From an uncultured Clostridia bacterium (GTDB lineage Bacteria > Bacillota > Clostridia > Oscillospirales > Acutalibacteraceae): a DNA stretch of 22,418 bases. The stretch spans positions 1 to 22,418 of the forward strand of contig CAMHLN010000016.1 in the NCBI GenBank assembly GCA_946186155.1, written 5' to 3'. The notes under the pieces are model-generated. The model had not been told where the DNA came from and made no database searches. It was given only the letters and a program-made list of their open reading frames with translations. Below, in pieces: positions 2,295 to 20,457 of the stretch (positions are counted from its first letter, which is position 1; every line of letters starts with the position of its first letter). A program made the translations under genes and the position numbers.

Positions 2295-3494
2295 ATGGCA
2301 AAAGAGAAATTTGAACGTAACAAGCCCCATATAAACATTGGAACTATTGGTCACGTTGACCACGGTAAAACTACTTTAACTGCTGCTATAACCAAGTATT
2401 TAGGTTTAAAAGGACAGGCAGAATTTAAGGATTATTCCAACATTGATAATGCTCCAGAAGAACGTGAACGTGGTATTACTATTAATACTGCTCATGTTGA
2501 GTATGAGACTGATGCTAGACACTATGCTCACGTCGACTGCCCTGGTCACGCTGACTATGTTAAAAATATGATTACTGGTGCTGCACAAATGGACGGTGCT
2601 ATTCTTGTGGTTTCAGCTGCAGATGGTCCGATGCCGCAGACACGTGAACACATCTTGTTGTCTCGCCAGGTTGGAGTTCCTTATATTGTCGTTTTCATGA
2701 ACAAAATGGATCAAGTTGATGATCCTGAATTGGCAGATTTAGTCGAAATGGAGATTCGTGAATTATTGAACGAGTACGAATTCCCAGGAGATGATATTCC
2801 TATAATTAAAGGTTCAGCTTTTAAAGCTTTGGATTCAAAATCTGAGGATGTTTCTGCTCCTGAATATGCATGCATTGGAGAACTTATGGATGCAGTGGAT
2901 AAGTATATACCAACTCCTGAGAGGACTTCAGATCAGCCTTTCTTGATGCCTATAGAGGATATTTTCACTATAAGTGGACGTGGAACTGTTGCTACTGGTA
3001 GAGTTGAGCGTGGTAGATTGAATCTAAACGAAGAAGTTGAAATTGTTGGTATAAGAGAGTCGAGAAAGACTGTTGTTACTGGAATAGAGATGTTCAGAAA
3101 ACTTCTTGATTACGCTGAAGCTGGAGATAATATCGGTGTTTTGCTTCGTGGAATTGAAAGAAAAGATATTGAAAGAGGTCAAGTCGTTGCTAAACCTGGG
3201 ACCATACATCCTCACACAAAGTTTGAGGCACAGGTTTATGTTTTGAAAAAAGAAGAGGGAGGAAGACATACACCTTTCTTCACTAATTACAGACCTCAGT
3301 TTTATTTCAGGACCACTGATGTCACTGGTGTTATTAATCTTCCTGCGGGAACTGAAATGTGCATGCCTGGAGACAATGTTAGCATGAGTGTGGAGCTTAT
3401 TACTCCGATTGCAATTGAAGAAGGACTTCGTTTCGCTATTCGTGAAGGTGGTAGAACTGTTGGTTCTGGTGTTGTTACAAAAATCCAATCGTAG
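2295..3494 (+). CDS. tuf: Translation elongation factor Tu
   Basis: [33 protein letters not shown] and further DCPGHADY and NKMD motifs are present. An AGGAGGT RBS lies 7 nt upstream. Confidence 0.97.
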
Positions 3495-3531
3495 ATTATT
3501 TTTTTGCGCCCGGGATTTTTCTTGGGCGTTT

Positions 3532-3618
3532 GCTGGTATGGCGGAATAGGTAGACGCAAGGGACTTAAAATCCCTCGGTAGCGATGCCGTATCGGTTCAA
3601 GTCCGATTACCAGCACCA
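3532..3618 (+). tRNA. tRNA-Leu (anticodon TAA), CCA encoded
   Basis: Acceptor GCTGGTA pairs with TACCAGC. The anticodon stem-loop is GGGACTTAAAATCCC. A long variable arm (type II) is present. Discriminator A followed by CCA. Confidence 0.85.
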
Positions 3619-3619
3619 A

Positions 3620-3695
3620 AGGGGTATAGCTCAGTTGGTAGAGCAACGGTCTCCAAAACCGTGTGCCGAGGGTTCGAGTCCTTCTACCCCTGCCA
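3620..3695 (+). tRNA. tRNA-Trp (anticodon CCA), CCA encoded
   Basis: Acceptor AGGGGTA pairs with TACCCCT. The D-arm is AGCTCAGTTGGTAGAGC. The anticodon loop CTCCAAA sits in the ACGGT/ACCGT stem. The T-arm is GGTTCGAGTCC. Confidence 0.85.
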
Positions 3696-3702
3696 TTTTT
3701 TC

Positions 3703-3730
3703 ATCCAGAATGTTTGCTGGATTTTGTTTG
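3703..3730 (+). terminator. Rho-independent terminator after tuf-tRNA unit
   Basis: Perfect 6-bp stem ATCCAG/CTGGAT with an 8-nt loop, followed by TTTGTTTG. Confidence 0.55.
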
Positions 3731-3767
3731 TAAAAATTTCAAGATTGTTTATATGTGAGTAGGGTAT

Positions 3768-4328
3768 ATGATTGTACATTCGGGAACGTGTCAAATTCAA
3801 ACTCAGAGGCTTGTTTTAAGGAAGTTTGTTCAGAGTGATGCTGAGCCAATGTTTAATAATTGGGCGGGAGATTGTGAAAATGTTAAGTACGTTAGTTGGA
3901 AAGCTCACAAAAGTTTAAGCGAAACCCAAAAGTTAGTTTCTGATTGGATTCAAGGTTATGACAATTTGGACTATTATCGTTGGGTTATAACTCTTAAGGA
4001 TAGTGGTCACGTTATAGGAGAAATATCCGTTATTGATTTTTCCGATTGTGACGAATGCTGTGAAATTGGATATATTCTTTCGAAAAAATACTGGAATATG
4101 GGATTTATGACTGAAGCATTAAATGCTGTTATTAGATATCTTTTCGAAAAAGTAGGATTTCATCGTGTGCAATTACGCCACGATGTGAACAATCCAGCTT
4201 CTGGAAGAGTTATGCAGAAAAATGGATTAAAATATGAAGGGACGTTGCGCCATTCAAGAAAAAATAATCAAGGCAATTATTGCGATACATCTATTTATTC
4301 GATTTTGAAGTTCGAATTTAAATTTTGA
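3768..4328 (+). CDS. GNAT-family N-acetyltransferase (RimJ/RimL-like)
   Basis: The N-terminal TQRLVLRKFVQSDAEPMF matches the GNAT beta1-alpha1 region. The pattern HRVQLRHDVNNPASGRVMQKNG(L)KYEG is typical of ribosomal-protein acetyltransferase-like GNATs. Confidence 0.8.
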   Translation: MIVHSGTCQIQTQRLVLRKFVQSDAEPMFNNWAGDCENVKYVSWKAHKSLSETQKLVSDWIQGYDNLDYYRWVITLKDSGHVIGEISVIDFSDCDECCEIGYILSKKYWNMGFMTEALNAVIRYLFEKVGFHRVQLRHDVNNPASGRVMQKNGLKYEGTLRHSRKNNQGNYCDTSIYSILKFEFKF

Positions 4329-5648: not shown

Positions 5649-8345
5649 GTGAATTTCATTAAATTACTATTCGGAAATTATAGCAAAAGAGAACTTAGAA
5701 GGATTCAGCCAATTGTCAATGCAGTTTTATCTAAAGAGCAACAATATATGAATATGGCAGACGAGGAACTTAAGGCGCAAACTCATGTTTTCAAAGAAAG
5801 ATTAAAAAACGGAGAGACTCTTGATAACATTCTTCCTGATGCTTTTGCAGCATGTAGGGAAGCTGCTGACCGTGCTTTAGGAAAAAGGCATTACCCTGTG
5901 CAAATTATAGGAGGGATTGTTCTTCACCAAGGAAGAGTTGCTGAGATGAGAACAGGAGAAGGAAAAACTTTAGTTTTGACTCTTCCTACCTATCTGAATG
6001 CTTTGACAGGGAAGGGAGTTCATGTTGTTACGGTTAACGACTATTTGGCAAAACGTGACTCTGACCTTATGAGCAAAGTTTATTCATTTTTAGGATTAAC
6101 TACGGGATTCGTTGGACATGATATGAGTAATGACCAGCGCAGAGTAGCGTACGCAAAAGATATTACTTATGCCACTAACAACGAGCTCGGATTCGACTAT
6201 CTTAGAGATAATATGGTCACAAAAAAAGAAAGACGAGTCCAGCGAGGACATTATTTTGCTATCGTGGACGAAGTTGACTCGATTCTTATAGATGAAGCAA
6301 GAACTCCTTTGATTATTTCAGGAGAGGGAGATAAATCTACCGAACTTTATGCAGTAGCTGACAGGTTCGCAAGGGGTCTGAGAATGACCAAAGTCAAAGA
6401 GTTGGATGCAAAAGAAGATAATGACGAGCTGTATAAAGATACTGACTATATAGTTGATGAAAAAGCTAAAACTGCTACTTTGACTCCTGAAGGGGTAAAA
6501 AAAGCTGAAGCATTTTTCCATCTCAATAATTTGATGGACCCCGAAAATTTGACTATACAGCACCATATAAACCAAGCTCTGAAAGCGCATGGAGTTATGA
6601 CTGCAGATATTGACTACGTTGTTCGCGGCAATGAAGTTCTTATAGTTGATGAGTTTACTGGTAGAATTATGCAGGGTCGCAGATATAACGAAGGATTGCA
6701 CCAAGCCATAGAGGCAAAAGAACGAGTTGAAATTCAAAAAGAATCTAAAACCCTGGCATCTATAACTTTTCAGAATTATTTCCGTCTTTACGATAAATTA
6801 TCCGGAACCTCGGGAACTGTTGTGACTGAAGAGGATGAATTTAGAGAAATTTACAAGTTGGATATAGTTGAAATTCCTCCGAATAAACCAGTTCAAAGAA
6901 TAGATGAGCCTGATTTGGTTTATAAAACTGAGAGAGGAAAATTCAGAGCAGTTGTGAATGAAATCAAAGAGGCACATAAAACCGGTCAGCCTATTCTCGT
7001 CGGAACCGCTGCTATAGATAAATCTGAAATTTTAAGCAACTTATTGACGCAAGCAGGTCTTGAACACCAGGTTTTGAACGCTAAACACCACGAACGAGAA
7101 GCAGAAATAGTCGCCCAGGCTGGTAAAAAAGGAGCAATAACAATTGCAACTAATATGGCTGGCCGTGGAACTGACATAATGCTTGGTGGTAACCCTGAAT
7201 TTATGGCAAAAGCTGAGCTTCGTCGCATAGGTCTTTCTCCTGAGCAAGTTATTGAAGCTACGAATGTTGACTTAACCGATGACCCAGAAGTTATAAAATT
7301 GAGGCAGCAGTATAGGACGTTTTTGGATAAATATACCGAAGAAATAAAATCTGATGCTGAGGAAGTTAGAAAATCTGGAGGCCTTTACATTATAGGTACG
7401 GAGAGGCATGAATCTAGGCGTATTGACAATCAGCTTAGAGGTCGTGCAGGTAGGCAAGGTGATCCTGGGCGGAGTAGATTTTATTTGTCTCTTGAAGATG
7501 ATTTAATTAGAATTTTCGGTGGAGATCGCATGTCTGCCATTATGTCTAGGTTTAACATAGACGAGGACACTCCTCTTGAGGCTAAAATGCTGACTAGGTC
7601 TATTGAGAATGCTCAGAAAAAGATAGAAATGAGAAATTTTGCATCAAGAAAGAATGTTCTTCAATATGATGATGTTTTGAGTAAGCAGAGAGAGATAATA
7701 TACAAGCAGAGAAACGAAATTCTTGATGGTGCTGATGTTCACGAGGAAATTTTGGGCATGATAGACAGTAGTGTGCAAGGTGTTGTTGCGAGATATCTTG
7801 CTCTCGAAGCTGAAAAGGAAAAGTGGAATTTAGAAGGTCTGAAAGATTACTACCTCAATTGGGCTCTTGATAATGATAGTCTGAATTTTAGCGAAGAAGA
7901 GTTAAAAAACCAGACTATACAATCTATAACTGATTTTATTATTCAAAAATGTAGGGAAAAGTTTAAACTTTTGGCTGATAATTACACTGAAGAATCTGTG
8001 AAAAATTTGGAAAGAACTTCTCTTTTGCAGGTTGTAGACAAGCATTGGATGGACCATATGGATGCTATGGAGGAGCTTAAGAGGGGCATAGGATTGCGTG
8101 CGTATGCTCAGAAAGATCCAATTATAGACTACAGAATGGAAGGATTTGATATGTTTGATGCTATGATATCAGACATAAAAGAAGAAACTGTAAAATCAGT
8201 TCTGTCTTTCTACACGAATCAAGTCAAATCGTCCAATAATAGTTATGAGGATGACGACGACGATGATTTTTCAGATATAGCTCCGTTTTTTGATCAACTT
8301 AGCAGCAAGATATCAGAGTCAGAAAGCACTTCTGTTGGATATTAA
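5649..8345 (+). CDS. secA: Preprotein translocase ATPase SecA
   Basis: Start assigned to GTG 5649, preceded by GAGGTGA. VNFIKLLFGNYSKRELRRIQPIVNAV aligns to the SecA N-terminus (MLGILNKMFDPTKRTLNRYEKI...). Walker A MRTGEGKTL, DEVDSILIDEARTPLIISG and TNMAGRGTDI are all present. The tail ends EDDDDDDFSD... without the CxCxSG Zn finger. Confidence 0.95.
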   Translation: MNFIKLLFGNYSKRELRRIQPIVNAVLSKEQQYMNMADEELKAQTHVFKERLKNGETLDNILPDAFAACREAADRALGKRHYPVQIIGGIVLHQGRVAEMRTGEGKTLVLTLPTYLNALTGKGVHVVTVNDYLAKRDSDLMSKVYSFLGLTTGFVGHDMSNDQRRVAYAKDITYATNNELGFDYLRDNMVTKKERRVQRGHYFAIVDEVDSILIDEARTPLIISGEGDKSTELYAVADRFARGLRMTKVKELDAKEDNDELYKDTDYIVDEKAKTATLTPEGVKKAEAFFHLNNLMDPENLTIQHHINQALKAHGVMTADIDYVVRGNEVLIVDEFTGRIMQGRRYNEGLHQAIEAKERVEIQKESKTLASITFQNYFRLYDKLSGTSGTVVTEEDEFREIYKLDIVEIPPNKPVQRIDEPDLVYKTERGKFRAVVNEIKEAHKTGQPILVGTAAIDKSEILSNLLTQAGLEHQVLNAKHHEREAEIVAQAGKKGAITIATNMAGRGTDIMLGGNPEFMAKAELRRIGLSPEQVIEATNVDLTDDPEVIKLRQQYRTFLDKYTEEIKSDAEEVRKSGGLYIIGTERHESRRIDNQLRGRAGRQGDPGRSRFYLSLEDDLIRIFGGDRMSAIMSRFNIDEDTPLEAKMLTRSIENAQKKIEMRNFASRKNVLQYDDVLSKQREIIYKQRNEILDGADVHEEILGMIDSSVQGVVARYLALEAEKEKWNLEGLKDYYLNWALDNDSLNFSEEELKNQTIQSITDFIIQKCREKFKLLADNYTEESVKNLERTSLLQVVDKHWMDHMDAMEELKRGIGLRAYAQKDPIIDYRMEGFDMFDAMISDIKEETVKSVLSFYTNQVKSSNNSYEDDDDDDFSDIAPFFDQLSSKISESESTSVGY

Positions 8346-8370
8346 AGTATAAATTTAGTTGTAAAAAATA

Positions 8371-8399
8371 TTGACTTTTAAAAAATTGAGTGATAAACT
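8371..8399 (+). promoter_or_regulatory. Putative promoter for tRNA array (TTGACT, 17 bp spacer, TGaTAAACT extended -10)
   Basis: TTGACT 8371-8376 and TAAACT 8394-8399, with a TG at 8391-8392. Confidence 0.45.
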
Positions 8400-8424
8400 A
8401 TGGGGGTAGTTTTGTTCTGGATTT

Positions 8425-8501
8425 GCGCCGGTAGCTCAGCAGGATAGAGCAACTGCCTTCTAAGCAGTAGGTCAGGGGTTCGAATCCCTTTCGGCGTGCC
8501 A
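8425..8501 (+). tRNA. tRNA-Arg (anticodon TCT), CCA encoded
   Basis: Acceptor GCGCCGG pairs with TCGGCGT. D-arm TAGCTCAGCAGGATAGAGC. Anticodon loop CTTCTAA in an ACTGC/GCAGT stem. T-arm GGTTCGAATCC. Confidence 0.8.
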
Positions 8502-8503
8502 GT

Positions 8504-8580
8504 GGTGGGCATAGCTCAGTTGGGAGAGCGCCAGATTGTGACTCTGGAGGTCGCCGGTTCAATCCCGGTTGTCTACCCCA
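8504..8580 (+). tRNA. tRNA-His (anticodon GTG) with encoded G-1, CCA encoded
   Basis: G-1 at 8504 pairs with discriminator C. Acceptor GTGGGCA pairs with TGTCTAC (2 G-U pairs). Anticodon loop TTGTGAC. T-arm GGTTCAATCC. Confidence 0.8.
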
Positions 8581-8582
8581 GT

Positions 8583-8657
8583 TGGGTTGTCGCCAAGTGG
8601 TAAGGCAATGGGCTCTGACCCCATCATTCGCTGGTCCGAATCCAGCCAACCCAGCCA
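8583..8657 (+). tRNA. tRNA-Gln (anticodon CTG), CCA encoded
   Basis: Acceptor TGGGTTG pairs with CAACCCA. Anticodon stem ATGGG/CCCAT with loop CTCTGAC. T-arm GGTCCGAATCC. Resembles the E. coli tRNA-Gln scaffold. Confidence 0.8.
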
Positions 8658-8662
8658 TTCAA

Positions 8663-8737
8663 TGGGATGTAGCCAAGCGGTAAGGCAACGGACTTTGACT
8701 CCGTCATTCGTTGGTTCGAATCCAGCCATCCCAGCCA
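8663..8737 (+). tRNA. tRNA-Gln (anticodon TTG), CCA encoded
   Basis: Acceptor TGGGATG pairs with CATCCCA. Anticodon stem ACGGA/TCCGT with loop CTTTGAC. T-arm GGTTCGAATCC. Confidence 0.8.
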
Positions 8738-9004: not shown

Positions 9005-9445
9005 ATGGGATTTTTTGAAGATTGTTATCTTAATATGAAGAGTGGAATTTCTAGGGCGGCAGAAAAAACTAAGAAAGTTTTAAATATTTCTAAAATAAAG
9101 ATCGAAATGGCTGAAAGAAAAAATTGTATCAATGATAAATATAAGCTGATAGGTAAGTACGTCTATGATATGCACAAAGGGGGGGAGAAGTTTGAGATTG
9201 AAGATATTGCTGATTGGCTTGAAGAGATAGATGCTCTTAGTTCGAGTATAGAAGAATGCGAAGAACGTTTGCATCGCGCTCAGGATAAGGTTTGCTGCCA
9301 TTATTGTAAATATAAGAACGAGTCTGGATCGAAATTTTGCAGCAACTGTGGTAAGAAGATATCTTTTGCCAAAAGAGGAAGCAAATCGTCTTGTGAAAAC
9401 TGTGAGAACGAAGAAAACAATGAAGAAAATGTTGAAATTAGCTAA
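9005..9445 (+). CDS. Hypothetical protein with coiled-coil N-terminus and C-terminal Cys-rich zinc-ribbon (CCHYC...CSNC, CENC)
   Basis: GGAG RBS 7 nt upstream. Cys pairs CHYC-x11-CSNC plus SSCENCENE read like a zinc ribbon. No family recognised. Confidence 0.55.
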   Translation: MGFFEDCYLNMKSGISRAAEKTKKVLNISKIKIEMAERKNCINDKYKLIGKYVYDMHKGGEKFEIEDIADWLEEIDALSSSIEECEERLHRAQDKVCCHYCKYKNESGSKFCSNCGKKISFAKRGSKSSCENCENEENNEENVEIS

Positions 9446-9982: not shown

Positions 9983-10127
9983 GATATCCCTCTATAAAAT
10001 AGCATATTGAATTATTTTAGTTTTGTTTATATCATAATCACGTGTTATTTTCTATGATATTTTTCATATGAAATTTTTTTATAAGATTTAGTATGACAAA
10101 TTTTGACAATTATTGGGAGTAAAGTTT

Positions 10128-10682
10128 ATGATAAAGTTTCTAAATGGAAACTGCGATTTGTTAATTAGGCACGATAAAAATTCGATTTTATTCAATGAAG
10201 ATTTATTCATTTACTCAGTATCGAAAATAGCTGAGGATATAAAAAAGAATTTTGATATGAGTAAAAAGATAGGTCTTGTTGGAATTGCTCGAGGAGCATT
10301 GCCTTTATTAGTTGCCGTTTCGCATGAATTAGGAATACGAAACGTCAATGTGTTTCAGTTAGTTATGAGTAAGTCTGATAACGAGTTCGATTTTGATGAA
10401 GTAGCGAAGATTTATGATGGGTATGTTGATAAAAGTTGCGATTGCTATATAATATTCGAAGATATAGTTAGTGAGGGACGAAGTGTTAATGTGCTGTTGG
10501 AAGAATTTTTGAAAAAGAAATTGGAGGTTTCTGCTGTTTATTCTTTGTTTGTGAAAGAAGATTTTATCGAATCCGGGAAATTGCTAGGAGATACAGATTT
10601 GAGATATGTCTTTCCTTTCAAAACGGATGAGTGGGTGTATTTTTTCTGGGAAAAGAAGTATAAAATTTTGAAAAATTTATGA
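10128..10682 (+). CDS. Type I phosphoribosyltransferase, Gpt (xanthine-guanine PRTase)-like, with atypical PRPP loop
   Basis: The ORF-track start at 10113 is a TTG. The ATG at 10128 has GGGAG 8 nt upstream. LVGIARGALPLLVAVSHELGIRNVNV parallels Gpt [26 protein letters not shown]. The PRPP motif is YIIFEDIVSEGRS, against canonical VIDDLVDTGGT. The C-terminus DEWVYFFWE parallels Gpt DTWIEQPWD. Confidence 0.7.
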   Translation: MIKFLNGNCDLLIRHDKNSILFNEDLFIYSVSKIAEDIKKNFDMSKKIGLVGIARGALPLLVAVSHELGIRNVNVFQLVMSKSDNEFDFDEVAKIYDGYVDKSCDCYIIFEDIVSEGRSVNVLLEEFLKKKLEVSAVYSLFVKEDFIESGKLLGDTDLRYVFPFKTDEWVYFFWEKKYKILKNL

Positions 10683-10693
10683 AAGGATAAGTA

Positions 10694-11020
10694 ATGTACA
10701 GAGTAATAAAAAGACTGGAAATTTCAGCGTCACATAAATTGAATCTTCCGTATGAAAGTAAGTGTAAAAATCTTCATGGGCACAATTGGATATTGACTGT
10801 TTATTTACAATCTGAAACTTTAGAAAATGGCATGGTTTATGACTTTACTGAAATTAAGAAGTTGGTTAAAAATAGATTAGACCATAAAAATATGAACGAT
10901 TACATAGAACAACCAACGGCTGAGAATATTGCAAAGTACGTTTGTGACATTTTAGGAGAAAAGTGTTATATGGTAGAAGTGCAAGAAAGCGATGGGAACG
11001 TCGCAGTATATGAAAAGTAA
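10694..11020 (+). CDS. queD: 6-carboxy-5,6,7,8-tetrahydropterin synthase
   Basis: At 108 aa it has the PTPS/QueD size. It carries the catalytic CxxxxHGH motif (CKNLHGHNW) and lies 11 nt downstream of the PRTase gene. Confidence 0.85.
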   Translation: MYRVIKRLEISASHKLNLPYESKCKNLHGHNWILTVYLQSETLENGMVYDFTEIKKLVKNRLDHKNMNDYIEQPTAENIAKYVCDILGEKCYMVEVQESDGNVAVYEK

Positions 11021-11720
11021 AAACTTAAGATTGTGTGAAATTTTTAAAAGTATATCAGGAGAAGGATTAAGGCAGGGTGTACCTGCTGTTTTTGTTAGAT
11101 TCAGTGGTTGCAATATGAATTGTGACTATTGTGATACGAAATATCATAAATATGATTTCAAAATGGTTAGTATAGATGATATTTTAGAAAATGAAATTGT
11201 TAAAAAATCGAAATATTTTGTCATAACTGGAGGAGAACCGTTTGTCCAACATGAGGACATATTTGAGTTGATACATCAACTTTCTCTTTTAGGAAAAGTT
11301 GAAATAGAAACTAATGGTTCTAACTTATATTCAAATGTACTTAATCTATATAAAAAAGTAAATCCGTTCAAAGTTTTGTTAACTGTCGATTATAAGATGG
11401 ACCAAGCAAGTGAGTTATATGTAAAAAATTTTGATATGGGATTGGACCTTATTAAAAATAAAATGCAAGAATTAGGTGTAGATGATAGGTGGTTTCCGTT
11501 GTGTTGCATTAAAATTGTAGTAAAAAACAAAAAAGAAATAGATGAATCTTACGAATTGTCTAAAAAATATTCTGGCTTTAAGATTATACTTTCCCCGTGT
11601 TATGGAATAATTTCTCCTACTGAGATGGCAGAGTATATAGTAGATAAAGAGTACGATGATTTAAGAGTTCAAGTTCAATTACACAAATATCTTTGGGAGG
11701 TTAATGCTCGTGGAAAATAA
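10992..11720 (+). CDS. queE: 7-carboxy-7-deazaguanine synthase (radical SAM)
   Basis: The cluster FSGCNMNCDYCDT is a QueE-type CxxxCxxC radical-SAM site, and LCEIFKSISGEG aligns to B. subtilis QueE VLEIFGPTIQGEG. The true start may be ATG 11010. The gene overlaps the queD stop, consistent with translational coupling. Confidence 0.85.
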   Translation: MGTSQYMKSKNLRLCEIFKSISGEGLRQGVPAVFVRFSGCNMNCDYCDTKYHKYDFKMVSIDDILENEIVKKSKYFVITGGEPFVQHEDIFELIHQLSLLGKVEIETNGSNLYSNVLNLYKKVNPFKVLLTVDYKMDQASELYVKNFDMGLDLIKNKMQELGVDDRWFPLCCIKIVVKNKKEIDESYELSKKYSGFKIILSPCYGIISPTEMAEYIVDKEYDDLRVQVQLHKYLWEVNARGK

Positions 11721-12288
11721 TGAATTAGATTTTAAAAATGCGGAAAACTCTATAAAAAAATTGTTCGAATGTTTAAAAATAAATTTGCCAGATGAAACTC
11801 CAAAACGGTACGTTAAAATGATGTACGATATGACTAAATACCAAAATGTTTCAAATCAAGAGATAGCCGATTTTGTAAACAAAACTTTCGAAATCGATAC
11901 TAAAACTGATTCAAGTAATATGGTGTTGGTTAAAGATATAGAAGTATTTAGTTTGTGTGAACATCACATTGCTCTTATGTATGACATGAAGATATCAGTA
12001 GGGTATATTCCCAACAAATTTGTTTTGGGTCTTTCAAAAATAGTTCGTTTAGCTGATATGGTATGTAAAAGATTACAACTTCAGGAAAAAATAGCAGAAG
12101 ATATAATAGAAATAATGAAAATTTTGACTCGAAGTTCTGATATAGCAGTTCATATAAGAGCAAAACATAGTTGCGTGACTGCACGAGGAATCAGAAATAC
12201 TTCATCTGAAACTGTTACGGTGAATTTCAATGGAAAGTTTTTGAATGACAGCTGTTTGAAATCATCATTTCTTAACAGTTTATCTTAA
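11704..12288 (+). CDS. folE: GTP cyclohydrolase I (FolE type)
   Basis: Carries the CEHH motif (SLCEHHIALMY), YIPNKFVLGLSKIVR and HSCVTARGIRN, all matching FolE. It overlaps the queE 3' end by 17 nt. GGGAGG RBS. Confidence 0.88.
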   Translation: MLVENNELDFKNAENSIKKLFECLKINLPDETPKRYVKMMYDMTKYQNVSNQEIADFVNKTFEIDTKTDSSNMVLVKDIEVFSLCEHHIALMYDMKISVGYIPNKFVLGLSKIVRLADMVCKRLQLQEKIAEDIIEIMKILTRSSDIAVHIRAKHSCVTARGIRNTSSETVTVNFNGKFLNDSCLKSSFLNSLS

Positions 12289-12389: not shown

Positions 12390-12418
12390 TTGTAATTATT
12401 GTCATAATGTGATATAAT
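12390..12418 (+). promoter_or_regulatory. Promoter of secreted-protein paralog 1: TTGTAA, 17 bp spacer, TGaTATAAT (extended -10)
   Basis: TTGTAA at 12390-12395 and TATAAT at 12413-12418, with the upstream TG at 12410-12411. Confidence 0.5.
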
Positions 12419-12424
12419 CCCGAC

Positions 12425-12467
12425 GCGCTTTAAGATATTGCGCTTTAAGATATTGCGCTTTAAGATT
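12425..12467. repeat. 15-bp tandem repeat GCGCTTTAAGATATT x 2.9 in 5' UTR
   Basis: Units lie at 12425-12439, 12440-12454 and a partial one at 12455-12467. They sit between the -10 and the RBS of paralog 1. Confidence 0.9.
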
Positions 12468-12486
12468 GTAAATTTTGGAGGTATTT

Positions 12487-13350
12487 ATGAACGAAACTAA
12501 AAAAAGATTGTTATCATGTTTATTACTTGCTATGGGGGGATTAAATTTAGGCACTGGAGTGTCTAATGCTCGATCAAAAGATGTTACCAATATGTCTAAT
12601 GTATCTTCCGAAGAAACTAAGAGAAATTCTAAAATTTCAAGTATTTTTAATTTAAGAAATGGTATAGATATTTTGGGATTATTGACTATAATTTATGGAG
12701 GTAAAAAGCTCCGGAATAATTCGCGAGACATAATTAAGAAAAATTCGGATATTATTAAGTATTACAAAGGACAAACTGATGATTTTAATTTATTGCAAGA
12801 TTTCCAACAGTTGTTTCGTTTTTGTTTGTGCCAGTCAAACGCTGGTTTTATTCATTTGAAAGATTTTACCGAAGAAGACTGCAAAAAGTACGACATCGTT
12901 TGTTTTAATAACGCGCAATACGACAAATCTGATGAATATTTGAGTTATTATTTTATTGTTGAATCGTCAGTAGATAAGAATGAAAAATTTAATTTTGCTT
13001 TTTGTACAAATAACAATTTTATGTCAGTTATAGCTCCTGCTAGTGCTGGTAATATTTCTGAGGATTATTCTGAAGAATATAATAATTTGAAACCATTTAA
13101 AGTAGCTGGGTATAGTATTTCGAAGGAAGTAAAACGAGAAAAATGTGCTAAAATTGTCGGGTTTAAATCATTGTTTCTAGGTATTAAACATCCAAATTTG
13201 TATTTTGGGGGCAAAGAACTGTTGGAAGAACACAAAAAAAAATTTGAAGATTATTATATAGTTTTTGAGATATATAGAGAGGTAGGTGAGGAGTACTACT
13301 CCTTGGATGGAATATACTGTAAAGTTTCATTGGTTAGACCAAAAAATTAA
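12487..13350 (+). CDS. Secreted protein, variable family member 1 (signal peptide, conserved RNG-IDILGLLTIIYGG N-module, Cys-containing divergent C-terminus)
   Basis: ATG 12487 follows GGAGGT. MNETKKRLLSCLLLAMGGLNLGTGVSNA|RS is a Sec signal peptide. The ORF-track 12475 start is a TTG extension. Confidence 0.8.
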   Translation: MNETKKRLLSCLLLAMGGLNLGTGVSNARSKDVTNMSNVSSEETKRNSKISSIFNLRNGIDILGLLTIIYGGKKLRNNSRDIIKKNSDIIKYYKGQTDDFNLLQDFQQLFRFCLCQSNAGFIHLKDFTEEDCKKYDIVCFNNAQYDKSDEYLSYYFIVESSVDKNEKFNFAFCTNNNFMSVIAPASAGNISEDYSEEYNNLKPFKVAGYSISKEVKREKCAKIVGFKSLFLGIKHPNLYFGGKELLEEHKKKFEDYYIVFEIYREVGEEYYSLDGIYCKVSLVRPKN

Positions 13351-13461
13351 ACAAATTAGTACCATTACTGGAATCAATGTAAGACAACGAATAATTTTAA
13401 CGAATTAGTTTGATTTTTAATTTGTGCTTAGTTGTAGTATTAAAGACTTTTGGAGGTATTT

Positions 13462-13518
13462 ATGAACAAAGCTAAAAAAAGATTGTTATCATGTTTATTA
13501 CTTGCTATGGGGGGTTAA
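13462..13518 (+). other. Orphaned start and signal-peptide fragment of paralog 2 (MNKAKKRLLSCLLLAMGG*), terminated by a 1-nt indel
   Basis: Its RBS and start context are identical to paralog 1. After the G6 run, paralog 1 reads GGGGGGATTAAAT and paralog 2 reads GGGGGGTTAAAT. The reading frame therefore hits TAA at 13516-13518. Confidence 0.75.
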
Positions 13519-14342
13519 ATTTAGGCACTGGAGTGTCTAATGCTTCCCCTAGGAGTAGTACTGAAAAATCCGAGAAAAATTCGAAAGTTTCAAGTATTTT
13601 TAATTTAAGAAATGGTATAGATATTTTGGGATTATTGACTATAATTTATGGAGGTAAAAAGCTTCGGGATAAAAATAAATCGTTGGAAGAATTGAATGAG
13701 GACAGATCGTATATCAAGGAGTTTTACGAAAATAAAGTTGATGATATTAACCTCTTTCAAAATTTTCAACATTTGTTTTATCTTTGTTTTAAAGGTGTAA
13801 TGTATTTTAGTGAATATAATTGGCAAGATTTAACAACAGAAGACTGCAAAAATTACGGAACCGTTTGTTTTGATAACAGTAAGTTAGAAGACGACAATTG
13901 TTATCGGAGTTGTTATTTTATTTCAAATAAACGTTTGGACAAGGAAAGTGATAGATTTTCATACATTGAAAAGCCAGAGTTATCGTCAGTTCTAGCTTCG
14001 GCTCCTAGTCAGTACGCCGGTGAATGTGGTAATTTAGAACCATTTACAATGGCTGGATATTCTGTTTGGTACAGTTTACAGAAAAACTTACGTGTTAAAA
14101 TCATCAAGTTTGAAGAACTTTTAAAAAAAGTTGAATATGATAACTTAAATAATTTGTGGAGTAAAGAAAAGTTTGATGAATATAAAGAGAAATTTAAAGA
14201 TTACTATATACTTTGTGAGGTGTATACAAATAGATATAAAAACCCCGAAATTAAAGATGAAGTTTTCTACAAATTTTCATTGGTTAAACCAATAGCACCA
14301 GCACCAATGCCAATACCAGAACCAGTACCGAAAAAAAATTAA
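13491..14342 (+). CDS. Secreted-protein family member 2, frameshifted at N-terminus (possible pseudogene or phase-variable)
   Basis: From the internal ATG at 13491 the protein reads MFITCYGGLNLGTGVSNA...SSIFNLRNGIDILGLLTIIYGGKKLR, 100% identical to paralog 1 across this module and then divergent. It has lost the charged n-region and start of the signal peptide. The C-terminus reads PIAPAPMPIPEPVPKKN. Confidence 0.6.
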   Translation: MFITCYGGLNLGTGVSNASPRSSTEKSEKNSKVSSIFNLRNGIDILGLLTIIYGGKKLRDKNKSLEELNEDRSYIKEFYENKVDDINLFQNFQHLFYLCFKGVMYFSEYNWQDLTTEDCKNYGTVCFDNSKLEDDNCYRSCYFISNKRLDKESDRFSYIEKPELSSVLASAPSQYAGECGNLEPFTMAGYSVWYSLQKNLRVKIIKFEELLKKVEYDNLNNLWSKEKFDEYKEKFKDYYILCEVYTNRYKNPEIKDEVFYKFSLVKPIAPAPMPIPEPVPKKN

Positions 14343-14359
14343 GAACAATCTTTAACAAA

Positions 14360-15376
14360 TCAGTTTGATATATGAACCAAATGAGCTACTCCAGGAATGT
14401 TTTTTCCTTGCTGAAAAGAGGTTGGAGACATTAAGGCTCCCGTGGCCATGAACAAAACGCTGTTTAGTTTGTGTTTTGCCATTTTTTGTAAAACATATGA
14501 GCACAAAATTGAAGCAGAGCATCCGCATCCCGAGCCTCCAGCATGGACATCTTGTTCTTCCTTATGAAAAATCATCAGCCCGCAGTCGTTGTAGTTTTTT
14601 GTGATATCTATTCCTTCTTTCGCTAGAAGTTCCTGAAGAAGTAGTGCTCCTGTTTCTCCTAAATCTCCTGAAAGAATTAAATCGTAATTTTCAGGAGATG
14701 TTTTAGTATCTTCAAAAAATTTTTTAAGAGTTACAAATGCTGCAGGAGCCATAGCTGCTCCCATGTTTGACGAATCAGTTACTCCCAAGTCCTCTATTGT
14801 TCCAGCGGTGAAATGTTTAATGAACGGAGTATTTTGTTTTTCTGTTTTTTGCCCCAAAACTATAGCTCCTGAGCCTGTGACCGTCCACTGAGCATTGGGA
14901 GTTCTTTGGCCTCCATAATCCAAAGGAAATCTATATTGTCTTTCTGCTGCGCAAAAATGAGATGAAGTAACAGATATGCAATTTTTTGCCGCATTAGATT
15001 CCACGAAAATCGATGCTACTATCAAAGTTTGTGCCATTGTAGAACAAGCTCCGAATTGGCCTAAAAATGGAATTTTCAGTTTTTTTAATCCCATCATCGA
15101 GGATATACATTGGTCTAGCAAGTCTCCTGCAAAAACGAAATCTATTTCATTTGAATTCACCCTAGATTTTTCAATTGCTATCCGAACTGCTTCTTTTTGC
15201 AAAATGGCTTCAGATTCTTCCCAAGTTTTTTGCCCAAATCTATTGTCTTTGAATGTTTTATCGAATAAGTTTCCTAGAGGACCTTGAGACTCTTTTAATC
15301 CACAAACTGATGCGAATCCCTTAATTGTTGGGCAATTTTCTAATTTAATAGTGCTTTTTCCTATTCTTATGGCCAT
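14360..15376 (-). CDS. spoVAD: Stage V sporulation protein AD
   Basis: At 338 aa it is the same length as B. subtilis SpoVAD. It shows long collinear identity: EGPLGxLFDK, GDLLxQ, IPFLxxFGACST, TSSHxxxAERQxRxPxxYGGQ, TVTGSGAxVL, GxTDSxxMGxAMAPAA, YDLILxGDL, NDCGLMI, AGGSGCxCSA and ATGALxSPT. Confidence 0.92.
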   Translation of the reverse strand: MAIRIGKSTIKLENCPTIKGFASVCGLKESQGPLGNLFDKTFKDNRFGQKTWEESEAILQKEAVRIAIEKSRVNSNEIDFVFAGDLLDQCISSMMGLKKLKIPFLGQFGACSTMAQTLIVASIFVESNAAKNCISVTSSHFCAAERQYRFPLDYGGQRTPNAQWTVTGSGAIVLGQKTEKQNTPFIKHFTAGTIEDLGVTDSSNMGAAMAPAAFVTLKKFFEDTKTSPENYDLILSGDLGETGALLLQELLAKEGIDITKNYNDCGLMIFHKEEQDVHAGGSGCGCSASILCSYVLQKMAKHKLNSVLFMATGALMSPTSFQQGKNIPGVAHLVHISN

Positions 15377-16909: not shown

Positions 16910-18232
16910 ATGAAAAATATGAAATCGAAAAAAGTTATTTTTGTTTGTAATAATTGTGGATACGATTCTGCCAAATGGAGTGGCAAATGTCCATCTTGTG
17001 GAGAATGGAATTCTATGTCAGAATTTTCCGAGAAAAAATTTTCTGGTAATAAAAAATGTTCGAATCCAGTTAGAATGTCGGAAATAAAATTTGACGATAA
17101 TATTAGAATGAGCACAGGAATATCCGAGCTTGACAGAACTCTTGGTGGCGGAATTGTTAAAGGATCATTTGTCTTGCTTAGTGGTTCTCCAGGAGTAGGA
17201 AAATCTACCATACTTCTTCAAATTTCTGAAAAATTTGAAAACATCTTATACGTTTCAGGAGAAGAATCTTATAGTCAAATTAAGATGCGGAGTGAAAGAT
17301 TGGGAATAAAAAATGACAATTTGTTTGTTCTTGCTGAAACTGATATTGATGTGATATCTAAGTGTATAGAAAATTTGAATCCCGGTTTGGTTATAGTAGA
17401 TTCTATCCAAACCATATCAAGTTCTGAAGTTAATTCTATTCCTGGTAGCGTTTCTCAAGTTAAAGAGTGCTCAAATATATTGCTTAAAATTTCAAAAGAA
17501 TTAAATATTGCTACGTTAGCAGTTAGTCACGTGAATAAGGAAGGAGCAATTGCAGGTCCTAAAGTTTTGGAACATATGGTAGATGTTGTTCTTTACTTCG
17601 AAGGAGAAAATAAAAATTCTTACAGAATTATAAGATGCATAAAAAATAGATTTGGCTCCACAAACGAGATAGGAGTTTTTGAAATGAAGACAAAAGGTCT
17701 AGAAGAAGTGAAAAACCCATCTTCAGTAATGTTGGAAAACAAATCTTTTGAATCATCAGGCTCATGTATTGCAGTTGTAACTGAAGGGAGTAGGCCATTT
17801 TTGGTTGAAATTCAAGCATTAGTTGTTCCGTCAAATTTGAGTATGCCCAGAAGAGTTTCAAATGGATACGATTATAATCGTTTGTGCATGATTTTAGCAG
17901 TTCTTGAAAAAAAATCAGGCTTCTATTTTTCAAATTCCGATGTTTACATAAATATTGTTGGCGGAATAAAAATCAATGACCCTTCAGCTGATTTGCCAAT
18001 AGCTATTTCTCTGGTTTCATCTATAAAAGATAAAATTGTCCCCATTGATTTAGCATCTTTTGGAGAAATTGGTCTTTCAGGAGAAATAAGAGGAGCATAT
18101 CGTTCGCAAGAAAGAATAGATGAAGCCAGAAGATTAGGATTATCAGAATTCATAATTCCTGACGTTAGTAATATTGAAGAAAAATCCGCCAAAAAAATTA
18201 AAAATATAAAAAGCATAAATTTTTGCATTTGA
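16910..18232 (+). CDS. radA: DNA repair protein RadA/Sms
   Basis: N-terminal C4 zinc finger CNNCGY...CPSCGEW, Walker A GSPGVGKST, the KNRFG motif and a Lon-protease-like C-terminal domain. Confidence 0.93.
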   Translation: MKNMKSKKVIFVCNNCGYDSAKWSGKCPSCGEWNSMSEFSEKKFSGNKKCSNPVRMSEIKFDDNIRMSTGISELDRTLGGGIVKGSFVLLSGSPGVGKSTILLQISEKFENILYVSGEESYSQIKMRSERLGIKNDNLFVLAETDIDVISKCIENLNPGLVIVDSIQTISSSEVNSIPGSVSQVKECSNILLKISKELNIATLAVSHVNKEGAIAGPKVLEHMVDVVLYFEGENKNSYRIIRCIKNRFGSTNEIGVFEMKTKGLEEVKNPSSVMLENKSFESSGSCIAVVTEGSRPFLVEIQALVVPSNLSMPRRVSNGYDYNRLCMILAVLEKKSGFYFSNSDVYINIVGGIKINDPSADLPIAISLVSSIKDKIVPIDLASFGEIGLSGEIRGAYRSQERIDEARRLGLSEFIIPDVSNIEEKSAKKIKNIKSINFCI

Positions 18233-18237
18233 CAAAA
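18165..18237. repeat. 73-bp direct repeat, copy A (native 3' end of radA including stop)
   Basis: Matches 19386-19458 at 69/73 positions. Confidence 0.9.
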
Positions 18238-18257
18238 ATGTTTAAAGAGTTTAAACT
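18229..18257 (+). promoter_or_regulatory. Putative promoter of paralog 3 built on radA stop region (TTGACA, 17 bp spacer, TAAACT)
   Basis: TTGACA at 18229-18234 overlaps the radA TGA. TAAACT lies at 18252-18257. Confidence 0.4.
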
Positions 18258-18280: not shown

Positions 18281-19246
18281 TTGAATAAGTCAAGATTATT
18301 ATCGTGCATAATGTTGTGTAGTACGGCGCTAGGGTTGGGTTTAGGAATAGGAACATCCGCCAAAACATCAAACGCCAAGACGTTAGATGACAAGGTGTCC
18401 CAAAGAAAGTATTCTAGAAATGGTTCAATGTTAAGTTTTCGTACGTTATTGGAATTTATTACCGTTTCTGGATTGTGCCTTAAAATAAAATCAATTTCTG
18501 ATGAAAACTCTGCAAAGGATCTTCGGGTTGGAGAGTTAGAGGAATTGAATAAGAGTTTAGATGAAAAAGTTAAACAATTAGATAGCAAAGTGTTTGGTGA
18601 TACATCCGATATTAATAAGCTTTCAATTACGAATGGCTTTTTAAAAAAAGACAACATTGAATTAAAGAATAAAATTGTTGTTTTAGAAAATAAGTTGGAA
18701 GCTAGTACGGTAGATAATAATATTATTAAAGATTTTGTTTCACGTTTTTTTTCGTTGGAATTAAAAGCAAAAGGTCAATGGGATTCAAGATGGCAGGAAT
18801 TGGAGAAAGATCAAGAATTTGTTTGCAAAAAATTTGGTGAACACTTTTGTTTCGGTGTCATTACAAGTGACTTAGATAGTTATGATTTTGAATCACAATC
18901 ATTGATTGAAAATTTAGGGAAAAATTTTAGCCTTAAATCGAAAGACGGATGGCAAACAAATTTTGATCGTGCATTAGAAATTTTGTGTCAAAAAAATTCT
19001 CAAATGTTTTTAGATGATAAGAGTAATGTGGTTCCAGATAGGAAGGCTTGTTGTTTTGGTGATAAGATTCGACGATTATGTCGAACATTGTATAAAACTT
19101 TTGAAAGTTCATCTGGTGAGAAATTTACAGTTTCTTGTAGTCTGTATGCTAAAACAGATAATTGGAATCGTTTGTGCTCAGTTGTTGTGATTTATGCTAT
19201 TGGTGACGTGGTTGATAAGAATCAGCCGGCTCCTGTTTTGGTTTAA
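18281..19246 (+). CDS. Secreted protein, variable family member 3 (TTG start; signal peptide MNKSRLLSC...TSNA; RNG module; coiled-coil; Cys-rich C-terminus)
   Basis: TTG 18281 has GGGGTGA 6 nt upstream. The N-terminal KxRLLSC...GLG.G.S..SNA and SRNGSMLSFRTLLEFITVSG parallel paralogs 1 and 2 (LRNGIDILGLLTIIYGG). Confidence 0.7.
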   Translation: MNKSRLLSCIMLCSTALGLGLGIGTSAKTSNAKTLDDKVSQRKYSRNGSMLSFRTLLEFITVSGLCLKIKSISDENSAKDLRVGELEELNKSLDEKVKQLDSKVFGDTSDINKLSITNGFLKKDNIELKNKIVVLENKLEASTVDNNIIKDFVSRFFSLELKAKGQWDSRWQELEKDQEFVCKKFGEHFCFGVITSDLDSYDFESQSLIENLGKNFSLKSKDGWQTNFDRALEILCQKNSQMFLDDKSNVVPDRKACCFGDKIRRLCRTLYKTFESSSGEKFTVSCSLYAKTDNWNRLCSVVVIYAIGDVVDKNQPAPVLV

Positions 19247-19385
19247 TTGTTGTGTGTTAAATTATAAAGAAAAATTTCTAGTTTTATGGTTCTAAACGGG
19301 GGTTTGGCGCTTTTTTGCTGGTGTCAACAGAGGTGTATTAATTGCAAAAAATGAAAAAGATAGTAAAATTTTATAATTCTTGATA

Positions 19386-19458
19386 TTAGCAACATTGAAG
19401 AAAAATTTGCCAAAAAAATTAAAAATATAAAAAGCATAAATTTTTGCATTTGACAAAA
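19386..19458. repeat. 73-bp direct repeat, copy B (duplicated radA 3' end, downstream of inserted gene)
   Basis: CATTGAAGAAAAATTTGCCAAAAAAATTAAAAATATAAAAAGCATAAATTTTTGCATTTGACAAAA matches 18165-18237 with 4 mismatches. Confidence 0.9.
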
Positions 19459-19680
19459 TTATTTCTAAATTTAAAAAAAAATTTATGTTACTTGGAGTTA
19501 TGGTTGTAAGGCATCGTTTTTTGTAAATTTACTTTGATTTTTTTGACAAATTTGCTTGCAATTTTTGTTTTAATTTGTAAAAATAGTGCTATTTTGTAGA
19601 AGAGGGGTGGTTGTCAAAGAATATTAGTTTTCTGCGGGCTTTTTATCTGAATTTTATTTTTATTTTGAGAGGTATTTATT

Positions 19681-20457
19681 ATGAGTTTCAAATCTGTTAA
19701 AAAAATTGTTAGCAAATTCGTGTTGGCTATGTTACTTTCATCATCATTTTCACTGAATGGCGATGCCATAGGCAAAGTACAGGAAATGGTAATGAAAGAT
19801 TGGCTTGAACATCAGGGGCTGAATGTCGAAGAAGGAATGAAAAAACTGCAGTACGCTGCTAAAGATGGTACCCCTTGCTATTTGGTTCCTATATATGAAA
19901 ATGACGAGGTTGAAAAGTTTATCGTTGATTTGTATAGTAATCAGGCTTATAAAGATTATATGTATAATTGGTTTGGTGGCAAGGGAATGAGTACCCAACA
20001 AAAAGCTAGATCCTCTAAGTTTGATGTGCCATATCTTAACATGCACAATTCCAAAGATCCCAGAGTGAATGCTCATGAGTATTTTGATGGTTATTTATCT
20101 AGGTCTGTAAACTTCGTAATTTTCTATGGAGATTTTTTAGCAGGACAGCTTTCGATGGGCCCGATGAGAAATTTGGGAGTTCCAAGTGAAGTTGCTGTCG
20201 TGATTCACAAAAAATACAGTGGAAAGGGAATATTCTCTGGGCTTTCTCAAATAGATATGGGATTTTTCATGAACGCTTATAAAAATGGTACTAAGAATGC
20301 AAGCCGAAATTTAAGCAGAATATACACCACACCTTCTAAGCCTCAAGCAACTAGTTTCATGGGTAGAGTGTTATCTGAAAAGTTTGGATTTTATTATGAC
20401 GAAAAATTGACTTCACAGAAAAAAGATGGTTGCAGTTACTACTATAAAGTTATTTAA
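19681..20457 (+). CDS. Hypothetical secreted protein (signal peptide; no recognised family)
   Basis: The N-terminus MSFKSVKKIVSKFVLAMLLSSSFSLNG reads as a signal peptide. GAGAGGT RBS. Its stop overlaps the stop of the convergent gene. Confidence 0.6.
   Translation: MSFKSVKKIVSKFVLAMLLSSSFSLNGDAIGKVQEMVMKDWLEHQGLNVEEGMKKLQYAAKDGTPCYLVPIYENDEVEKFIVDLYSNQAYKDYMYNWFGGKGMSTQQKARSSKFDVPYLNMHNSKDPRVNAHEYFDGYLSRSVNFVIFYGDFLAGQLSMGPMRNLGVPSEVAVVIHKKYSGKGIFSGLSQIDMGFFMNAYKNGTKNASRNLSRIYTTPSKPQATSFMGRVLSEKFGFYYDEKLTSQKKDGCSYYYKVI

Follow-up and report, generated by a model that had tools for sequence, protein, structure and literature searches.

Two adjacent genes in an uncultured Clostridia bacterium start with nearly the same DNA and then diverge, which raises the question of how such a pair arises and what its variable part is for. 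The genes lie on contig CAMHLN010000016.1 of assembly GCA_946186155.1, all 22,418 nt of which were analyzed and are called the window here (low G+C, 27-41%). Genes 1 and 2 stand in tandem on the same strand between folE and spoVAD, at 12487-13350 and 13462/13491-14342, the two starts given for gene 2 being its true and its annotated one. The initial annotation described a pair of secreted-protein paralogs with a shared N-terminal module and recombining C-terminal cassettes, and likened them to antigenically variable surface proteins and polymorphic effectors. We find that the core observation of a shared N-terminal module is correct and far exceeds chance, and that alleles from related strains are mosaics with sharp breakpoints at the edge of that module.

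A near-identical 5' module joined to divergent bodies

Alignment of the two genes gave 96-99% nucleotide identity across the regions said to be shared. The block comprising the ribosome-binding site (RBS) and signal peptide (12473-12570 versus 13448-13544) is 96% identical, with 4 mismatches and 1 indel in 98 nt, and the block encoding SSIF…KKLR carries 1 mismatch in 78 nt; the variable linker between the two conserved blocks contains a 21-nt indel. Past the KKLR block, DNA identity is ~50%, with islands at the motif pairs quoted in the earlier reading, EDCKKY/EDCKNY, KFEDYYIVFEIY/KFKDYYILCEVY and SLVRPKN/SLVKP…KKN, every one of which we located in the translations. The proteins are 44% identical overall and 31-37% identical past residue 76, in agreement with the drop to roughly 30% originally claimed. 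Nor is the family a conserved single-copy housekeeping protein. The DNA 3' of gene 1 repeats the tail of gene 2, which is Pro-rich, together with the last codons and 3' end of spoVAD, and the pair therefore derives from a tandem duplication. That tail, PIAPAPMPIPEPVPKKN, forms the C-terminus of gene 2 (14292-14342); the corresponding DNA is untranslated in two related contigs, L010 and L001, because stop codons fall earlier there, and C-terminal tails therefore vary by stop-codon shifts.

Seven related contigs formed the comparison set at the folE-spoVAD interval. A single gene occupies it in L001 (327 aa), L007 (286 aa), L009 (319 aa) and L010 (286 aa), two genes occupy it in L008 (359 and 377 aa) as in the window, and in L011 gene 1 is interrupted by a 137-nt insertion. 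Copy number is 1 or 2, and N-modules and bodies occur in differing combinations, the two kinds of strain variation that had been proposed for checking. The L011 insertion (1187-1323 in that contig, ~13254 in the window) falls inside the KFEDYYI motif of a gene 1 otherwise identical to ours, in sample ERZ12202736 at 3.4x coverage. A 15-nt direct repeat, AAATTTGAAGATTAT, borders it, and the resulting frameshift costs the protein its last two predicted strands. We rejected a mobile element as its source, since no second copy occurs in the window or in the related loci compared.

Identity to other strains ends abruptly at the 3' end of the KKLR block. Gene 2 and L001 are 88-100% identical over 13440-13675; between 13676 and 14303 their identity never exceeds 78% and is mostly under 60%, and from 14304 onward it is back at 80-100%. 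L010 matches gene 1 at 95-100% across the promoter, the 5' untranslated region (UTR) and the signal peptide and at 82-95% across the linker and KKLR block, past which it switches to a match to gene 2 (82-98%); it has the structure that an unequal crossover between genes 1 and 2 within the conserved block would be expected to produce. Linkers, too, are found with more than one kind of body: type A precedes a gene 1-type body in window gene 1 and a gene 2-type body in L010 and L007, and type B precedes a gene 2-type body in window gene 2 and an unrelated body in L001 and L009. The proposal of recombining C-terminal cassettes is thus upheld by mosaic alleles and sharp breakpoints, with the SSIF…KKLR block as the junction.

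Core genes of these contigs differ by a synonymous divergence (dS) of 0.10-0.27 and encode proteins 94-98% identical, whereas the bodies fall into at least five classes with 26-40% protein identity and dS above 1. These values bear on a plainer account of the pair, as an ordinary fast-evolving orphan family without programmed variation, in which the N-module would be constrained by export and helix function, the bodies would drift under weak constraint, gene 2 would be a duplicate decaying into a pseudogene or its missing G an assembly error, and a 15-nt repeat in the 5' UTR would be a neutral variable-number tandem repeat. Bodies with dS above 1 and 26-30% protein identity, so much more divergent than the core genes, cannot have drifted apart since the strains split, and require old allele classes and exchange. 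Protein constraint, moreover, does not account for the near-identity of the 78-nt block at synonymous sites.

Rates of protein change can be read on either side. Nei-Gojobori ratios of nonsynonymous to synonymous divergence (dN/dS) were 0.9-2.3 for orthologous bodies and 1.1-1.5 for gene 3, a relative described below, or 10-20 times those of neighboring genes (0.06-0.12 for folE, spoVAD, radA, the SDF transporter gene and Wzy), with bootstrap intervals that include 1, as an ordinary orphan family would allow. High ratios hold also in pairs with both genes intact, and thus characterize the family as a whole and do not reflect decay in the window. Open frames of 286-377 codons persist in all 8 alleles at ~30% G+C, a composition at which a stop is estimated to arise at random about every 11 codons; the alleles are therefore maintained as coding sequence, which argues for selection to stay coding and against unconstrained drift. 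The family is also tiny, no cassette archive, recombinase or invertible element lies nearby, and the broken gene 1 of L011 indicates that inactivated copies occur. Weighing these points together with the short homopolymer and unstructured UTR described in the next section, both of which would suit it, we regard the ordinary-orphan account as unlikely.

Reading frame of gene 2 and signals upstream of gene 1

Gene 2 shares its signal peptide with gene 1, as was claimed, at the DNA level but not in frame, because one base is missing at 13509-13514. From ATG 13462 gene 2 reads MNKAKKRLLSCLLLAMGG and then meets the stop at 13516-13518. At the tract in question the codons are ATG GGG GGA TTA in gene 1 (a G6 run at 12534-12539, GGG GGA, inside the signal-peptide-like segment) and ATG GGG GG-TTA in gene 2. 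The 283-codon open reading frame (ORF) from 13491, which public records carry as gene 2 (P0003), lies in a different frame from ATG 13462 and has neither a Shine-Dalgarno sequence nor the n-region of a signal peptide. Judged from its translation, gene 2 is off in this assembly, one base being missing from a G7 tract in the signal-peptide codons, and the product as assembled could not be exported.

The length of the G-run inside the signal-peptide codons sets the reading frame of gene 2, G6 placing it out of frame and G7 in frame. L009 and L010 carry G7 at this position and are in frame; in L001, L007 and L008 the tract reads AT[A/T] GGG GGG, a G6 that is in frame after an ATA or ATT codon. The comparison of in-frame G7 (L009, L010) with out-of-frame G6 (the window) comprises three observations in which an assembly error is possible. 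The shortened tract of gene 2 could be the OFF state of a slippage-prone tract, a new null mutation or an assembly error. GGG accounts for 9% of Gly codons in neighboring genes. A single other G or C run of at least 6 occurs in the window, a G7 at 9179-9185 that is in frame within the gene for a 146-aa zinc-ribbon protein (9005-9445).

Upstream of gene 1 we noted a putative sigma-70-type promoter, the sequence of which recurs upstream of the first gene in L001, L007, L008, L010 and L011. Between its -10 box and the RBS lies the 15-nt tandem repeat, within the predicted 5' UTR (Table 1). Copy number is 2.8 in the window, L001, L010 and L011, 4.8 in L007, and 2.0 and 4.0 in the two L008 genes. 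A structured RNA was considered for this UTR and ruled out, as its predicted fold is no better than that of shuffled sequences (z = -0.31) and it has no Rfam match; the repeat pattern likewise had no match in JGI metagenomes. Window gene 2 has no repeat array, and no terminator precedes it; it is therefore probably co-transcribed with gene 1.

Table 1. Positions in the window of the features discussed, with the basis for each.
Feature	Position	Strand	Basis
Putative sigma-70-type promoter of gene 1: TTGTAA, 17-nt spacer, TGaTATAAT (extended -10)	12390-12418	+	Consensus scan, 10/12 plus TG; function inferred
15-nt tandem repeat GCGCTTTAAGATATT, 2.8 copies, -10 box to RBS, predicted 5' UTR	12425-12466	+	Tandem Repeats Finder (TRF), 100% matches
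Shine-Dalgarno GGAGG of gene 1	12477-12481	+	Read from sequence; 5 nt before ATG 12487
Gene 1, 287 aa, intact	12487-13350	+	ORF list and translation; identical to database protein P0001
Signal-peptide-like segment (Sec type), gene 1 residues 1-28: n-region MNETKKR, h-region LLSCLLLAMGGLNLGTGV, c-region SNA	12487-12570	+	Read from sequence
Linker type A, Ser/Thr/Lys/Glu-rich, variable	12571-12636	+	Alignments; type B of gene 2 shorter by 7 residues
Conserved block SSIFNLRNGIDILGLLTIIYGGKKLR: hydrophobic helix, invariant Arg-x3-Asp pair, basic cluster; recombination joint	12637-12714	+	1/78 nt differs from gene 2
Gene 1 C-terminal alpha/beta domain, residues 95-287, variable "cassette"	12769-13347	+	
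Shine-Dalgarno GGAGG of gene 2	13452-13456	+	Identical to that of gene 1
Gene 2 true start: 18-codon signal-peptide remnant, ends at TAA 13516-13518	13462-13518	+	Translation and alignment to gene 1
Gene 2 body as annotated, 283 aa, P0003	13491-14342	+	n-region of signal peptide absent, no RBS
G6 run minus one base; G7 would restore ATG GGG GGG TTA and a 293-aa protein	13509-13514	+	Alignment, translation
Gene 2 segment replaced in L001 and L009 (cassette limits)	13676-14303	+	Sliding-window identity
radA 3' end, left copy of 118-nt direct repeat bracketing gene 3	18138-18255	+	Repeat search, 83% identity to 19359-19476
Gene 3, 321 aa, TTG start: signal peptide, Arg-x3-Glu hydrophobic helix, coiled coil, Cys-containing C-domain	18281-19246	+	BLASTP, hhalign
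Right copy of radA 3'-end repeat, non-coding	19359-19476	+	Repeat search; present in L001 too

Protein anatomy, topology and candidate functions

The N-terminus of gene 1, MNETKKR / LLSCLLLAMGGLNLGTGV / SNA, matches by eye the tripartite layout of a signal peptide, and it is from this appearance that the proteins would be called secreted. Residues G17-A28 are invariant across 8 alleles and variability begins immediately past SNA, as expected for a cleavage site. Within the conserved block, R57, I60, D61, G71, G72, K73 and L75 are invariant. AlphaFold2 starts the helix at residue 53, with low confidence; its hydrophobic core spans ~13 residues, and Kyte-Doolittle 19-residue peaks of 1.0-1.5 lie under the usual transmembrane threshold of 1.6. 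A coiled-coil stalk of varying length follows in some alleles and is nearly absent in genes 1 and 2. The C-domains of every allele can be aligned and have the same predicted secondary-structure elements. We also considered, and rejected, a lipoprotein, for lack of a valid lipobox, and a type IV pilin-like leader (G↓IDIL…), which would have a leader of 59 residues and its acidic residue at +2 in place of +5.

Taken together, these observations suggest, at roughly even confidence, that the folE-spoVAD interval is a hypervariable locus for an exported envelope protein whose bodies are exchanged by recombination and diversified by an outside antagonist. In this protein a Sec-type signal peptide would be followed by a short variable linker, by a strongly conserved hydrophobic helix running to KKLR, and by a stalk with an alpha/beta domain of ~190 residues. 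Its 5' module, near-identical between paralogs and strains, may serve as a handle for homologous recombination. Bodies have been swapped, duplicated and deleted between strains, which has left one or two genes at each locus and no fewer than 5 body types. The proteins would be exported and held at the cell envelope by the hydrophobic helix or by a signal peptide that is not cleaved, and the variable domain would face the antagonist, whether phage, host immunity or competitors, whose pressure drives diversification. The G-tract may modulate expression, and so perhaps may the 15-nt UTR repeat. In a stronger form, the pair would be a compact, novel type of contingency locus, with on/off switching by the G-tract, tuning by the 15-nt repeat and cassette exchange at the ~80-nt handle serving phage or host evasion by an orphan envelope family of new fold; we judge this version decidedly improbable.

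Several observations weigh against the proposal of an exported, exchanged envelope protein. The C-domains contain 4-9 poorly conserved cysteines, and many cysteines are unusual in exported Firmicute proteins. A hydrophobic helix followed by KKLR suits a stop-transfer anchor, by which the variable domain would be kept cytoplasmic. The alleles finish with …SLV[KR]P-KN or a similar sequence; neither LPXTG nor a hydrophobic tail was seen in them, and Pfam shows no wall-binding domain. The sole leader Cys is residue 11, preceded by only 3 hydrophobic residues and replaced by Tyr in P0002, P0005 and P0024, so that no lipobox is present. At seven G residues, the tract is short for a contingency tract, and its missing base is explicable as an assembly error or a simple inactivating mutation; the UTR repeat shows no structure, and the dN/dS intervals include 1. 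The data set, finally, is small: some 8 alleles drawn from a few samples.

The same features of the helix and C-domain bring in a second topology, which is possible though doubtful. The signal peptide, cleaved or not, and the helix would form an out-and-back hairpin in the membrane, with only the 22-29-residue linker outside and the coiled coil and variable domain inside. The membrane-anchored proteins would then belong to a small defense-island-like hot spot, and the variable domain would not be a surface antigen but would sense or block a phage or other invader in the manner of abortive infection or exclusion. Positive charges lie on the would-be cytoplasmic side of both hydrophobic segments (the N-terminal KKR and the KKLR past the helix); this positive-inside pattern and the many unconserved cysteines favor a cytoplasmic C-domain. 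The invariant Arg57-x3-Asp61 pair (Arg-x3-Glu in gene 3) could neutralize itself within a membrane helix. Strain-specific presence, cassette replacement between housekeeping flanks and high dN/dS are equally typical of defense loci. Yet the hydrophobic core is short and its peaks fall below the transmembrane threshold, as noted above, and the variable stalk length favors export. No match came from Pfam, NCBIfam, PHROGs or PDB by sequence or fold, PADLOC not having been searched, and the proteins show no nuclease, NTPase or other effector domain. From the sequence, we would thus give about an even chance to an exported protein in which the helix is a peripheral or oligomerization element, and consider a hairpin or stop-transfer arrangement with a cytoplasmic C-domain unlikely.

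A conserved N-terminus, variable C-termini and recombination at their junction also recall polymorphic toxins, in which a conserved N-terminal trafficking module would deliver variable C-terminal toxic domains to competitors. The gene content argues otherwise: there is no candidate immunity gene, gene 2 runs up to the convergent spoVAD with no ORF in between, loci with one gene hold nothing else, and secretion-system genes are absent nearby. Searches of Pfam, NCBIfam, PHROGs and PDB, the last by sequence and fold, found no LXG, WXG100, Rhs, PT-TG or toxin domain. The alignable C-domains with common predicted secondary structure point to one diverging fold and not to unrelated toxin domains. 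We rejected the toxin model on the missing immunity gene and think it very improbable. Neither of the functions first put forward, an antigenically variable surface protein or a polymorphic effector, was borne out, as the alleles have no lipobox, LPXTG, wall-binding domain, immunity gene or toxin domain; antigenic variation is a role that we could at most infer.

Known variable systems resemble the locus in part. The Vsp genes of Mycoplasma bovis and the Vpma genes of Mycoplasma agalactiae have a conserved 5' UTR and conserved signal-peptide codons in front of mature parts with little or no similarity (PMC2268961). As in those systems, the paralogs here share a 5' leader region, their mature parts diverge, and strains vary through recombination; both L008 genes carry the repeat-containing UTR, which window gene 2 lacks. 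Unlike the present proteins, Vsp and Vpma are lipoproteins with an AAKC lipobox (Cys11 is too near the N-terminus here, and Tyr in three alleles), and they are encoded in clusters of at least six genes subject to DNA inversion by a site-specific recombinase, whereas this locus holds one or two genes in the same orientation without internal repeats. No recombinase ORF occurs in the window or the syntenic loci, no notable flanking inverted repeat was found, and there is no sequence similarity to the Mycoplasma proteins. A second parallel is with slipped-strand contingency genes whose repeat lies next to or inside the leader-peptide codons, as do the CTCTT repeats in the leader of Neisseria opa. 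In Gardnerella nanH3, a homopolymer lies next to the signal-peptide codons, and genomes with the tract out of frame are annotated without the signal peptide (bioRxiv 10.1101/2020.09.16.300947). The likeness is that homopolymer length decides the frame of the signal peptide and that gene 2 (P0003) is annotated without one; unlike the C8-C14 tracts of nanH3, for which length variation was shown within colonies (bioRxiv 10.1101/2020.09.16.300947), the tract here is only G6 or G7 and its variation was seen only between contigs of different samples.

Surface proteins of Gram-positive bacteria offer a further parallel in that a conserved leader or anchoring part is combined with exposed domains that vary between strains. 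The emm group of Streptococcus pyogenes (mrp-emm-enn) consists of tandem recombining paralogs with coiled-coil stalks and a C-terminal LPXTG anchor, and CwpV of Clostridioides difficile has CWB2 repeats and phase-variable expression through an invertible switch. By Pfam and alignment, LPXTG, CWB2 repeats and an invertible switch are all missing here. Membership in the Vsp/Vpma, polymorphic-toxin and wall-anchored classes fails in each case, and for the slippage-switch class the tract is short.

Family breadth, gene 3 and the surrounding locus

A search of 5.8 billion clustered proteins identified 6 family members, and an exhaustive hidden Markov model (HMM) search of 1.84 billion cluster representatives identified 5 clusters plus P0025. 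HMM and superfamily-profile searches together added just P0024 and P0025. The superfamily profile defines, in all, 11 clusters at 90% identity, which come from a small number of ENA and Logan samples; at 11 clusters among 5.8 billion proteins, there is no large gene family or archive of silent cassettes. The gene 1/2 family was not found in GTDB species representatives or IMG/VR viral contigs, and the DNA pattern of the N-module had no match in JGI metagenomes. A phage origin was rejected for want of viral matches. When genes 1-3 and two further alleles were scanned against Pfam, NCBIfam and PHROGs, only coiled-coil noise came back; a profile search of PDB sequences gave nothing under E = 0.49, and fold searches of the family found no relative. 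Because no homolog of known function appeared in Pfam, NCBIfam, PHROGs or PDB, function cannot be transferred by homology. This is an orphan family found in just one lineage of uncultured Clostridia.

Gene 3, 5' of which lies radA, had been counted as a third member. It is related to the pair, but as a distant paralog only. BLASTP aligns it to the family at 33% identity over the first ~63 residues alone, and hhalign profile-profile comparison gave 91% probability and E = 1e-6 over ~183 columns that run from the signal peptide through the Arg-x3-acid helix and the coiled coil into the first part of the C-domain. P0025, encoded at a third locus, bridges the gene 1/2 and gene 3 families. The direct repeat that brackets gene 3 consists of the last ~95 nt of radA and 23 nt downstream, and L001 has the same arrangement. 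From these repeats, the gene 3 region looks like an old 1.2-kb insertion at the radA 3' end with the reading frame restored; no integrase is present with it. P0025 was found on L012, a contig from the same samples as L001, beside a PemK toxin gene. Also next to P0025 is a tandem pair of Cys-rich paralogs of 310 and 300 aa whose N-termini resemble signal peptides; P0025 lies at 2906-3853 and the pair at 6807-7739 and 7761-8663.

The window begins with fusA, tuf, tRNA genes, secA, ispF and queD/queE/folE, followed by genes 1 and 2 and the convergent spoVAD, and continues with the SDF transporter gene, radA, gene 3, a gene for another signal-peptide-type protein, and the Wzy and DegT genes. Four tRNA genes are clustered 3' of secA (8425-8734), the last two forming an 80-nt tandem repeat (85% matches). 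spoVAD (14360-15376, minus strand) has neither spoVAC nor spoVAE beside it; these three genes are commonly a single operon. The signal-peptide-like protein encoded 3' of gene 3 (19681-20457, 258 aa, no Pfam match) represents a second orphan family, with one gene in the window and two tandem paralogs in L001 of 314 aa (10123-11067) and 257 aa (11290-12063). Between the window and its L010 ortholog dS is 0.60, far above that of neighboring genes, and dN/dS is 0.22. The organism appears to be rich in duplicated orphan genes for signal-peptide-like proteins.

By SpoVAD (81-82% identity), the closest species representatives are metagenome-assembled genomes (MAGs) of uncultured Clostridia from water-deer rumen and goat reticulum, in which we found neither synteny with the window nor the gene 1/2 family. 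These ruminant-gut genomes, as the nearest relatives, suggest host association for the organism, and the lineage carrying the family is probably gut-dwelling.

On present evidence, a poorly sampled lineage has yielded a new orphan family that shows a known evolutionary behavior, with a presumed function and selective agent; the general phenomenon is already well known. The public annotation of gene 2 lost its signal peptide because of a homopolymer frameshift, the same trap as in Gardnerella nanH3. Loci of this type are useful for telling strains apart in metagenomes, and the fold of the C-domain may be new. If the proposal of an exchanged envelope protein is right, the locus would be a small, clean case of an uncultured anaerobe diversifying an envelope protein, in which a short near-identical DNA handle permits swapping, duplication and deletion of the exposed part and a simple repeat may silence a copy. 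Loci of this kind would then show where phage or host selection acts.

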